Positions 7,743-31,510 of a DNA stretch of 40,733 nucleotides are shown here, in pieces. Source of the stretch: Candidatus Hermodarchaeota archaeon. GTDB taxonomy: Archaea > Asgardarchaeota > Lokiarchaeia > Sigyniarchaeales > SOKP01. The translations under genes were made by a program, and so were the position numbers. The stretch is taken from positions 1-40,733 of the forward strand of contig JBHLLG010000024.1 in assembly GCA_048885925.1 (NCBI GenBank). Reading direction: 5' to 3'. How positions within the stretch are numbered: position 1 is the first letter of the stretch; every line of letters starts with the position of its first letter. The notes under the pieces were generated by a model that did no database searches, was not told the DNA's origin, and was given only the letters and a program-made list of their open reading frames with translations.

Positions 7743-8273
7743 CTACAAAGAACTTTCTGAAGCATAATAAATTAACCATTTACCCATTGCAGAAAAAGAT
7801 TCATTGATATTAATATCCTCTTTTGATGAGCAGAACACACACTGATTACACTTTGCTTTTATAGCATATTCGTTAGCGATATTATAGTCCACCTCATGGT
7901 CAGTGAGATCCCATTTCATACCCATAAGAATTATAGGGATAAAACCCGCTTTTTGCCGAATAATTTTAAGCCATTCTGGGATTTCTCTAAATGTATCGTA
8001 ATCAGTAATATCAAAGCAAATAAATGCACCACTAGCACCTTTGCAATAATCCGGTAAGAGTTCACGGAATCGTTTTTCACCGGCAAAATCCCAAAGTTGC
8101 ATTTTAACAGCTTCTCCAGTATCTAATATTTCTGATTTCGTATGAAATCCTGCACCAATCGTCATTTTATAACCTTCCTCAAATTTTCCAGTACAATATC
8201 TTGTTACCATAGCAGTTTTTCCTACACCACCTGCCCCCGCTATAATTACCTTGAAAATCCATGAGCTCTGCAT
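7743..8273 (-). CDS. Rab/Ras-like small GTPase (Asgard type)
   Basis: GAGGVGKT, YKMTIGAGF, LWDFAGEKRFR, MGMKWD and CSSK motifs; no C-terminal Cys prenylation motif. Confidence 0.92.
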   Translation of the reverse strand: MQSSWIFKVIIAGAGGVGKTAMVTRYCTGKFEEGYKMTIGAGFHTKSEILDTGEAVKMQLWDFAGEKRFRELLPDYCKGASGAFICFDITDYDTFREIPEWLKIIRQKAGFIPIILMGMKWDLTDHEVDYNIANEYAIKAKCNQCVFCSSKEDININESFSAMGKWLIYYASESSL

Positions 8274-8655
8274 TTTAATAAATCACATAAAATTTCTACC
8301 ATATAGAATAAGCTTATTGATAAATAATAAAAATTCTTCTTTAAATATTTTTTTACTTAAAAAGATCCCTCTTCCATTTTTGAATCATAAATTTGGAAAT
8401 ATAGATCTAATGAAAAAATTAAAAAAAGATTTAATATATTTTCGATAATAATATTCTGATTTAATTCATGTTAAAAAAAAAATCCTGCTTTACATTTCCT
8501 AGAATTTTGAATTGAAAAACATTAATAGATCAAGATTTGATATTTTTATGTAAGTTTCCTATCAAAACGAAAAAGATTTTTATAAGACTTTATTCTATTA
8601 TTTTTTAGATCTAAATTTTAATAAGCTTCAATAATAAAGGTTGTGATAAAAGAGT

Positions 8656-8973
8656 ATTAAAGACGACGATATTTGTCCTATATGTAGTTTTCCAAAAGAA
8701 CTATGTATATGTGATAGTTTAAGTGCAGATGAGCAACAAATAATAATCTCTAATGATACACGAAAATGGGGAAGAGTCGTTACCGTCGTTACTTTTGTTG
8801 GTAATTTTGATGTAAATTTAAAAAACATTCTAACAAAAGCCAAAAAGAAGTGTGCTTCAGGTGGAACTGTCAGAAATAATGAAGTTGAACTGCAAGGAGA
8901 TCATAGATTCAAAATGAAAAAATTTTTAATAGACCTTGGATTCCCTGAGGAAAATATATTAATAAAAGAATAA
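8656..8973 (+). CDS. sui1: Translation initiation factor aIF1/SUI1 (start uncertain; ATT at 8656 used)
   Basis: Missing from the ORF track. Reads (I)KDDDICPICSFPKELCICDSLSADEQQIIISNDTRKWGRVVTVV...AKKKCASGGTVRNNEVELQGDHRFKMKKFLIDLGFPEENILIKE*, with the archaeal N-terminal Cys cluster and the SUI1 CASGGTV/ELQGDHR motifs. Confidence 0.93.
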   Translation: MKDDDICPICSFPKELCICDSLSADEQQIIISNDTRKWGRVVTVVTFVGNFDVNLKNILTKAKKKCASGGTVRNNEVELQGDHRFKMKKFLIDLGFPEENILIKE

Positions 8974-9069
8974 TTTGAAATAAAAAACTATCATTGGATA
9001 TATATTCATAACAATTAGAGCACTTGATATATGATAAATTAATTAAAAGCATGAATTAATTTAATTTCT

Positions 9070-30326: not shown

Positions 30327-31061
30327 CTAAAAAGCTTCAAAAATATCATTTTCTGATTCATAAATCCGTGATTCTAATATTAAATCATGGAGATAGGATC
30401 TTAATTCACTTTCAGGGATTTTAGATTTTTGTTTCAATTTTTCAAAATTGATTCCATTTCCTTTTGAAGAATATTTCTCAATTATTAGAAAAATTTGTTC
30501 TTTTTTATCATTTCGTTGATGATTTTTACTCTCATTTTCGAATAGAGTTACAACATCTATCTCATCTGAAAATTCATCTATATCGTCTCTTAGATCAGTT
30601 AGTTCGGGAATTTCTTGGATCTCTCCATGCTTTATCTTAACCACAATTTCAGCATCTCTTAATATAATAAGATTAGGATTTTCGACTTTTTTTATAATTT
30701 CTATCCATAATGTTACAAAATCTCCAAATTTAGTTACACGACCCACAATATCTGCAACATCACCTTTTACAAACATCTTATATTCTTCTGGGTTGATATT
30801 TCTTACTATTGCTCTTATCATTCCTGTACCATCATCTACATCAAAATCAAGTCTAACATTGTGGTTAGATTCTTCGTCTAAACCCATATCCGCTTCATTT
30901 GATTCAATTAACTTTTCTTTTTTATCTATTATTGTAGCTATAATTCTAATTCGCTTGACATTTCCAAAAATTGTATAAAAAAATTTCTCATTTTCGTCGT
31001 ATTGACCCTCTAAAATGTGTTTTATCCAACATTGAACGGTAGGATTTCTTTTATAACTCAT
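30327..31061 (-). CDS. RPA32/Stn1-like protein (OB fold plus C-terminal winged helix)
   Basis: V.RIRIIATII, DDGTG.IRA, VGRV..F, an acidic linker, then a wHTH-like tail (GI.FEKL......ELRSYL.DL..E.RIYE). Confidence 0.8.
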   Translation of the reverse strand: MSYKRNPTVQCWIKHILEGQYDENEKFFYTIFGNVKRIRIIATIIDKKEKLIESNEADMGLDEESNHNVRLDFDVDDGTGMIRAIVRNINPEEYKMFVKGDVADIVGRVTKFGDFVTLWIEIIKKVENPNLIILRDAEIVVKIKHGEIQEIPELTDLRDDIDEFSDEIDVVTLFENESKNHQRNDKKEQIFLIIEKYSSKGNGINFEKLKQKSKIPESELRSYLHDLILESRIYESENDIFEAF

Positions 31062-31210
31062 TATTTATTCATCTCACATTTTTCCCTTGTTTTTACATTT
31101 TAAATTTAAATAATTTTTCAATATAGAAATATCTATTAAGCTAATAATATTTTTGAGCTTTTTTTCGTAAAGCACCTATAACAAATGATTCTATTAAAAA
31201 GAAAAGAAAA

Positions 31211-31314
31211 TGGTAGCGGGGGTTCGATTTGAACGAACGATCTCAGGGTATCTCTAGGGCAATTTATTGCCATTTATGAGCCCTGCGGCATAAACCAGGC
31301 TAGCCCACCCCGCT
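31211..31314 (-). tRNA. Initiator tRNA-Met(CAT) with a 25-nt canonical 37/38 intron (31250-31274) and encoded CCA
   Basis: A1:U72 (AGCGGGG/CCCCGCT), GGG/CCC anticodon stem, CT-CAT-A|intron|A, relaxed BHB CTCA-TA|A / AGAG-AT|A. Confidence 0.95.
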
Positions 31315-31510
31315 ATAAATGTATTTATGGGTGTATCCATATATGATATATTATATTTATATATAGAAGATTATAAACTTATAATTTAATATTTTTCTAT
31401 TTTTTAATAGTAATTATTGCCTAAGTATCAAATTATTTAGAATATAATCAATAACTTTAACTTCCAAATTAAATTAGAAAATAAAAGTGAATATAAATTA
31501 ATAGAACAAT

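Follow-up and report, generated by a model that had tools for sequence, protein, structure and literature searches.

In the stretch of DNA studied here, 40,733 nucleotides of contig JBHLLG010000024.1 from a Candidatus Hermodarchaeota archaeon (hereafter the window), the gene for the translation initiation factor aIF1 has no canonical start codon and is very probably translated from an AUU codon at position 8656. An AUH codon (AUU, AUC or AUA; ATT, ATC or ATA in the DNA) is found at the homologous position in all 95 readable loci of the family to which the window belongs. In bacteria and in eukaryotes, the mRNA of the start-codon proofreader has a weak start by which the factor is regulated, an AUU codon for IF3 and an AUG in poor context for eIF1. 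If AUU is fixed on aIF1 throughout a family of the archaea that stand nearest to eukaryotes, this would close the archaeal gap, and it gives a concrete, testable leader. Full-text literature searches, run on main texts and not on supplements, returned no paper on a non-AUG start or on autoregulation of archaeal aIF1, and none on AUH starts in Asgard archaea. The best overall explanation would be an intact aIF1 gene that is translated from AUU 8656 and limits its own synthesis in the manner of IF3 and eIF1; by analogy with these systems, we regard it as an even call.

The aIF1 gene and its start codon

The aIF1 coding sequence extends from 8656 to 8973 on the plus strand (105 codons plus TAA) and is matched by the Pfam SUI1 model PF01253 and by the NCBIfam model NF002096. 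With PF01253, a score of 65.2 bits was obtained (cut-off 25.5), the domain covering residues 28-99 of a 107-residue query. With NF002096, the score was 112.7 bits (cut-off 98), and residues 4-103 of 105 were aligned with profile positions 2-101 of 102. A protein search with aIF1 yielded 181 related proteins at E ≤ 1e-10, and within the genus the protein is 90-97% identical. The source assembly (95% complete, 181 contigs) contains one SUI1-family gene, as expected of an essential factor.

Positions 8641-8685 read TTG TGA TAA AAG AGT ATT AAA GAC GAC GAT ATT TGT CCT ATA TGT. Translation of this frame therefore gives a leucine and two stops followed by KSIKDDDICPIC..., and ends at the TAA at 8971-8973. 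Between the in-frame TTG TGA TAA (8641-8649, plus strand), whose TGA also belongs to the Shine-Dalgarno (SD) element and shuts the aIF1 frame on its upstream side, and the first cysteine codon at 8674, there is no in-frame ATG, GTG or TTG. The first in-frame canonical start is the ATG at 8914-8916 (plus strand), which is codon 87 counted from ATT 8656 and lies deep in the SUI1 domain; a count from 8650 gives 88 codons. The original prediction, made from the sequence, had described an aIF1/SUI1 frame with two stops upstream, no canonical start ahead of the conserved CPIC motif and a first ATG near the C-terminus, and this description is correct.

The N-terminus carries a zinc knuckle of archaeal type, CPIC-x6-CIC (Cys 7, 10, 17 and 19; 8674-8712, plus strand), located ahead of the SUI1 domain. 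All four cysteines are unchanged in an alignment of 11 Asgard aIF1 proteins. A zinc knuckle of this kind is present in many archaeal aIF1, according to a passage of Monestier 2018 (PMC6237735). As the knuckle must be translated, the start has to lie upstream of 8674. Binding to the 30S subunit and rejection of non-AUG complexes are described for the S. solfataricus and P. abyssi factors in sections of PMC4705826 and PMC6237735; for the window's aIF1 we assume both properties by homology.

ATT 8656-8658 (plus strand) had been listed among the near-cognate candidates, and it came out as the best start from its distance to the SD element, the coding signature that follows it, the NF002096 alignment and public annotation. 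It is located 8 nt after GTGAT. Genome-wide, from the positions of SD k-mers before the first ATG of long open reading frames (ORFs), starts are found 3-9 nt after GGTGA or GTGAT, with GTGAT ending 3-8 nt ahead of the ATG. The codons between ATT 8656 and a second ATT at 8671 encode K-D/E-D/E-D/E and change mainly at third positions, with an extra codon inserted in frame in genus g15. At the protein level, NCBI records of relatives already begin with MKDDDICPIC, that is at the codon of ATT 8656. AAG 8650, put forward as another candidate, drops out because this codon is TAG in two loci of the same genus (L002 and L008). AUU 8656 would be read as methionine by the initiator tRNA.

The annotation of relatives at this ATT is thus already known, though under the name YciH. 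The relatives' proteins P0001-P0006 and P0011 are called "stress response translation initiation inhibitor YciH" by NCBI, a misleading label that comes from the subfamily model NF002096. Identity with bacterial YciH, a SUI1 homologue that acts as a stress-response inhibitor, was considered and rejected: the equivalog model TIGR01158 gave 80 bits, below its cut-off of 111.65, the host is archaeal (the relatives' records are titled Promethearchaeota or Hodarchaeota) and the zinc knuckle is of the archaeal type. Other public gene calls for relatives give shortened proteins of 100, 84 and 70 residues. Gene finders restricted to ATG, GTG and TTG thus shorten aIF1 to 70-100 residues, and they truncate or miss dozens of other genes in these genomes, which skews studies of gene content and of marker genes in Asgard archaea.

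The Shine-Dalgarno element and the leader

An imperfect SD element, AGGTTGTGAT, is located at 8638-8647 (plus strand), where the original prediction had also seen it. A motif search and the Rfam small-subunit model found no 16S rRNA in the source assembly, and the 3′ end was taken from a genome of the same genus, where it reads ...GGATCACCTCCA, from which the SD complement GGAGGTGATCC is derived. The aIF1 element matches the anti-SD complement GGAGGTGAT at GG..GTGAT and carries two central mismatches (GGTTGTGA as compared to GGAGGTGA). Counted from the end of GGAGG, the spacer to ATT 8656 measures 12, a value at which only 2 of the 62 AUH-started ORFs of the same genome described below are found; 40 of the 62 have a spacer of 9. 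The aIF1 spacer is therefore 3 nt longer than the AUH optimum, and the imperfect SD and the long spacer are conserved along with the weak codon.

Further upstream, a conserved AT-rich block, TATTATTTTTTAG (8596-8608, plus strand), lies 48-60 nt before the ATT and is found at equal distance in the upstream sequences of several genera of the family; it is a putative TATA/BRE promoter element. From the usual archaeal distance between TATA box and transcript start, the transcript would begin near 8630, and the leader would measure about 25 nt. When 20 sequences of the family (-28 to +59) were folded together with RNAalifold, 0 pairs were predicted, the window's own leader folds with z = -1.54, and no leader structure is claimed.

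Conservation of the start region

The 5′ regions of 96 primary-copy aIF1 loci were collected from the window's family (f1). One of them runs off its contig, and the 95 readable loci represent 12 genera. In 89 of the 95, no in-frame canonical start is present between the upstream stop and the first cysteine. These 89 loci belong to genera g1 (42), g14 (29), g16 (4), g15 (4), g12 (3), g17 (3), g78 (2), g19 (1) and g77 (1); within the window's genus, the layout is present in 42 of 42 readable loci. The candidate codon in the 89 loci is ATT in 87 cases and ATC in two. When all loci are considered, every one of the 95, and thus each of the 12 genera, has an AUH codon at the homologous position.

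The distance to the SD is kept as well. In 86 of the 95 loci, the AUH codon follows GTGA at a distance of exactly 9 nt; the nine spacer bases vary freely. With this spacing, the TGA of GTGA is in frame and closes the aIF1 frame. The six loci outside the group of 89 (four of g13, one each of g18 and g79) show either a GTAGTG variant or a GTGA at a distance of 8 nt, and keep ATT or ATA at the homologous codon.

ATG is also avoided in the sister family f2, where eight of eight loci have another codon (TTG 4, GTG 2, ATA 2), the ATA being aligned exactly with the TTG or GTG of the sister loci. Some f1 genomes carry a second SUI1 copy, about 61-64% identical to the window's aIF1; nine such loci were found (L125, L126, L130, L133, L138, L141, L143, L144 and L147), none in the window's genome, and they may be either paralogues or contaminants of the bins. 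Most of them have GAGGTGA with an in-frame GTG (one of the nine is unreadable). The copy in genome G007 contains two internal TAA codons.

AUH start codons in the rest of the genome

A near-cognate start, on which the original prediction had built its feedback loop, is not peculiar to aIF1: at least 62 unique ORFs of the same genome start with ATT, ATA or ATC behind an SD motif and have no canonical alternative. They were found with a screen anchored on SD 5-mers, which retained open frames of at least 100 codons that had an in-frame stop no more than 10 codons before the site and no canonical start either between this stop and the site or in the next 15 codons. At the optimal SD spacing, the codon was ATG in 49 cases, TTG in 25, GTG in 4, ATT in 25, ATA in 13 and ATC in 3. 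With the reverse-complement motif used as a decoy, the same spacing gave ATT 2, ATA 2 and ATC 0. Over spacers 7-12, 65 AUH codons were counted as compared to 278 canonical ones, and 20 and 17, respectively, behind the decoy; once duplicates had been taken out, the 62 ORFs remained. A screen based on codon usage, looking for coding sequence before the first canonical start, had proved unselective (aIF1 ranked 334 of 793) and was dropped in favour of the SD-anchored one.

The commonest layout is GGTGA followed by exactly 6 nt (40 ORFs). These 40 were scanned for Pfam domains at E ≤ 1e-5, and 34 had a match. In about 17 of the 34, the domain begins at most 20 residues from the AUH codon, at profile positions 1-6; AFOR_N, GFO_IDH_MocA, Response_reg, adh_short, ThiF, Ras, DsrE and IMPDH are examples. 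Initiation at a downstream canonical start would decapitate these domains. From these sequence data, we consider AUU, AUA and AUC to be ordinary, minority start codons in the source organism. The AUH-started ORFs are spread over the genome (G000), for instance on contigs C5, C128, C14, C72, C64 and C2 (loci L229-L268). A possible ACG start, placed at GGTGA + 6 nt and with no canonical start nearby, belongs to an ORF that resembles ribosomal protein uS8 and is located near 64526 on the plus strand of contig C8.

As for the decoding of these codons, no initiator tRNA with an isoleucine anticodon was present among the 31 tRNAs detected, which form an incomplete set. A candidate intron-containing tRNA-Met with anticodon CAT (CAU) is located at 31211-31314 of the window on the minus strand. 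It has an A1-U72 end pair and a GGG/CCC anticodon stem, both initiator-like. This tRNA was reported only by ARAGORN with introns allowed; ARAGORN with default settings reported no tRNA in the window, and Rfam (E ≤ 0.01) gave nothing at 31000-31500.

The aIF1 start as compared to other AUH starts

Since AUH starts are common throughout the genome, the AUH codon by itself is no evidence of a dedicated loop on aIF1. The stability of the aIF1 start was therefore compared with that of six other AUH-started genes, using for each the best 27-30 of 27-46 matches from 46 sampled f1 genomes. For IMPDH, AUH was found in 2 of 28 loci (ATG 23, TTG 2, GTG 1), and for NBP35 in 4 of 29 (ATG 21, TTG 1, 3 unclear). 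DUF134 had AUH in 7 of 30 loci, with 22 ATG and one TTG. Larger shares were obtained with the MGMT-like gene (10 of 27; ATG 14, 3 unclear) and the ThiF-like gene (14 of 29; ATG 11, GTG 1, 3 unclear). L7Ae had AUH in 10 of 30 loci, all in the window's genus, where 10 of 10 loci have it; the other 20 have ATG. Thus, all six control genes switch between AUH and ATG within f1, several of them within the window's genus. aIF1, in contrast, is never found with ATG in the 95 f1 loci, though a single T-to-G change would create one. The genes for aIF1A, aIF2-alpha and aIF2-beta of the window's genome start at ATG.

The layout also sets aIF1 apart. It shares the SD-led AUH start with the genome's other AUH genes, but these mostly have GGTGA + 6 nt (40 of 62), whereas aIF1 has GTGA + 9 nt, an SD with two mismatches and no ATG in f1. 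The aIF1 site is weak in three ways, all fixed in f1: the AUU codon, the two central mismatches in the SD and the 3 additional nucleotides in the spacer. Judging from these sequence comparisons, the weak site has probably been kept by selection.

A possible autoregulation of aIF1

How a weak site could serve the regulation of its own product can be proposed by analogy. Pairing of the SD would place the 30S subunit, and the initiator Met-tRNA (anticodon CAU) would pair with AUU despite the third-position mismatch. aIF1 would destabilise near-cognate complexes, the one on its own AUU site included. A rise in aIF1 would then lower initiation on its own mRNA and a fall would increase it, which would form a homeostatic loop. 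In the experiments described in a section of Asano 2014 (PMC4705826), S. solfataricus aIF1 blocks 30S complex formation on a model mRNA with AUU and not on one with AUG; the autoregulation of IF3 and of eIF1 is also described there. That the weak AUU site of the window serves autoregulation of aIF1 is, in our estimation, a little short of an even call.

Of the archaeal feedback loop advanced in the original prediction, the argument from the near-cognate codon itself has to be given up. What speaks for such a loop is instead the fixation of AUH on aIF1 in 12 of 12 genera, when six of six controls revert to ATG, along with the ATG starts of aIF1A, aIF2-alpha and aIF2-beta.

The closest bacterial case is infC, the gene of IF3, which has an AUU start and controls its own translation (Butler et al. 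1987, cited in a passage of Asano 2014, PMC4705826). In both systems, the gene of a start-codon proofreader has an AUU behind an SD, and the codon is conserved among relatives; less factor would lower the stringency and lead to more initiation at the factor's own AUU, as proposed here for aIF1. IF3 and aIF1 have, however, unrelated folds, and for aIF1 the autocontrol is a proposal made from sequence. Genes that start with AUU are very rare in E. coli, infC and pcnB being the known cases. The window's genome, in contrast, uses AUH for dozens of genes, so that aIF1 would, in addition, determine how much is made from a large number of genes.

In eukaryotes, eIF1 has an AUG in poor context and is subject to negative autoregulation (Ivanov et al. 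2010, cited in passages of PMC6237735 and PMC4705826). aIF1 is a homologue of eIF1 through the SUI1 domain, and in both cases a weak initiation site is present on the fidelity factor's own mRNA. What makes the aIF1 site weak is its codon, SD match and spacing rather than a Kozak context, and initiation would be guided by the SD and not by long-range scanning. aIF1 also has a zinc knuckle, which eIF1 lacks.

A wider form of the proposal would make aIF1 the set-point of a genome-wide stringency circuit: the factor would tune an "AUH regulon", while its own triply weakened AUU would hold its level constant. AUH-started genes make up roughly a tenth or more of the SD-led genes in f1, including an L7Ae-family ribosomal protein gene, IMPDH and several small GTPases. 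We consider this circuit unlikely. If true, it would represent an archaeal forerunner of eIF1-based stringency control, in the prokaryotes most closely related to eukaryotes.

The strongest competing explanation is that AUU 8656 is the real start and has no regulatory meaning, being one more case of the lineage's SD-led AUH habit. The AUU would then be kept either because a low output of aIF1 suffices or because the geometry of the SD and its in-frame TGA makes an ATG no better. The 62 AUH-started ORFs with an SD in the same genome are in line with this explanation. So is the L7Ae gene, as AUH in 10 of 10 same-genus loci means that conservation at the genus level is not special. Against it stands the conservation over the whole family, with AUH on aIF1 in all loci of all 12 genera when each of the six controls has ATG elsewhere in f1. 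The T-to-G change giving ATG is never seen, sister family f2 avoids ATG as well, and the imperfect SD, the long spacer and the weak codon are conserved together. Absence of regulation is thus a real possibility, though we would not bet on it.

Several observations weigh against self-limitation of aIF1 or against its generality. The cell uses AUH starts despite its aIF1. This abundance cuts both ways: AUH initiation works in this cell, and its aIF1 may discriminate poorly against AUH, which would weaken the loop. The selection argument stands on a small set of six controls, read in part of the loci, in related genomes that are not independent. A GTG start is conceivable in the six loci with a displaced or variant GTGA and in the majority of the second copies, where the SD supplies an in-frame GTG that no stop follows. 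The trait is also not phylum-wide. Among 30 loci of other Asgard families, chosen by similarity and not at random as the best-scoring of 270 matching genomes, 16 had ATG, 9 GTG, 4 no canonical start and one was unclear; the four loci without a canonical start carry an ATA candidate 9 nt after AGGAGG. A species-collection sample (the best 80 of 588 confirmed loci, again chosen by similarity and non-random) contained 72 loci outside the window's lineage, mostly from Bathyarchaeia and Thermoplasmatota with one from Jordarchaeia (L157-L228), and all 72 had an ATG one to five codons before the first cysteine. With ATG on so many archaeal aIF1 genes, a weak start is not required by the protein.

Other readings of the start region

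A different way into the aIF1 frame could be offered by the mini-ORF GTG ATA AAA GAG TAT TAA (8643-8660, plus strand), which is present as originally described. Its five codons are read one base behind the aIF1 frame, and its stop (8658-8660) overlaps the ATT by one base. Translation would start at GTG 8643, and the ribosome would reach aIF1 through a +1 shift at the stop of the mini-ORF (UAU UAA A) or would terminate and reinitiate at the overlapping AUUAA. Shifting at a stop codon is familiar from prfB and antizyme. Throughout the genus GTG 8643 is unchanged, all same-genus loci read have an open mini-ORF, and in most genera its stop overlaps the ATT. However, GTG 8643 forms the core of the SD match and lacks an SD of its own; there is only an AAGG, 2 nt before it. 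The codons of the mini-ORF change non-synonymously between species (I-K/R/I-E/K/Q-Y/H), and it ends early in two loci from two genera (L121 and L131). Genus g78 (L124 and L140), which has no canonical start in the mini-ORF frame, nonetheless retains the ATT and the closure of the aIF1 frame. Any second codon that begins with AA, AG or GA, a common case, creates the overlapping stop, and dozens of other genes with the same SD-to-AUH layout need no shift. The likeness to programmed +1 frameshifting of the prfB/RF2 and antizyme type, where a short upstream frame meets a stop and a +1 move enters the main frame, is therefore limited: here, the upstream frame lacks a ribosome-binding site of its own, the peptide it encodes is unconserved, and the frame is absent in a genus that keeps the ATT. 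Entry into aIF1 through the mini-ORF, by shift or reinitiation, is accordingly very unlikely. From its sequence, we judge the mini-ORF to be a by-product of the SD (which supplies the GTG) and of the second codon (AAA), and not a functional upstream ORF.

Within the aIF1 frame, initiation could alternatively occur at the second ATT (Ile 6, 8671-8673, plus strand), giving a product that begins M-C-P-I-C. One public call makes this choice, as the 100-residue protein P0007 begins with MCAIC, and the codon at 8671 is always AUH (ATT, ATC or ATA) in the loci read. It is, however, located 23 nt after GTGAT (24 nt after GTGA), beyond the genome-wide spacing range. The codons before it show the third-position changes and the in-frame g15 insertion noted above, and the NF002096 alignment begins at residue 4, upstream of this ATT. 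We judge it to be an ordinary isoleucine codon and hold a start there to be highly improbable.

A sequencing or assembly error (an ATG read as AAG, or an additional A) and a decaying pseudogene, which the A4 homopolymer at 8648-8651 and the fragmented metagenome bin (181 contigs) might have suggested, are refuted by the contig comparison and by the family-wide layout. Logan contigs of 4 runs from 4 studies were compared over 8450-9050; as they are DNA contigs rather than raw reads, rare variants may be hidden. A search of sequencing runs listed none of RNA that contains this region. No indel was found at 8492-9050, and the only substitutions near the start were 8650 A>G, 8652 G>A and 8670 T>C. 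At 8643-8660, where an inspection of reads had been suggested, none of the four runs has an ATG at 8650 and the A4 run is intact, without shortening. The relatives share the layout and have no ordinary start. It is the same in 20 other same-genus genomes, the sole exception being one locus with N in its 5′ part that was left out, and in 89 of 95 independently assembled family loci. A pseudogene is also countered by a frame that stays open over 105 codons, by the high protein identity across the genus and by the fact that this is the genome's only aIF1 copy.

The S. solfataricus P2 aIF1 was once annotated with a -1 frameshift and proved to be full-length on resequencing, as reported in a passage of PMC8211752. 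There too, the 5′ part of an aIF1 gene looked broken in a database record. That case was attributed to a sequencing error, whereas here independent assemblies and 95 loci confirm the layout. The locus with N mentioned above (L022) belongs to a closed same-genus genome (G006), where the 5′ part of aIF1 reads N. Elsewhere in this genome, at G006:C1:1032005-1032082 (minus strand), 26 residues within a 189-codon open frame match the N-terminus of aIF1 with 92% identity.

Neighbouring genes

Directly upstream of aIF1, the window carries a Rab/Ras-like small GTPase gene (7743-8273, minus strand; 176 codons, ATG start), which fits an Asgard origin. The aIF2-beta gene (Pfam PF01873; 29820-30233, minus strand) has an ATG start. 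A span of 23 kb contains all three genes, those of aIF1, aIF2-beta and the initiator-like tRNA.

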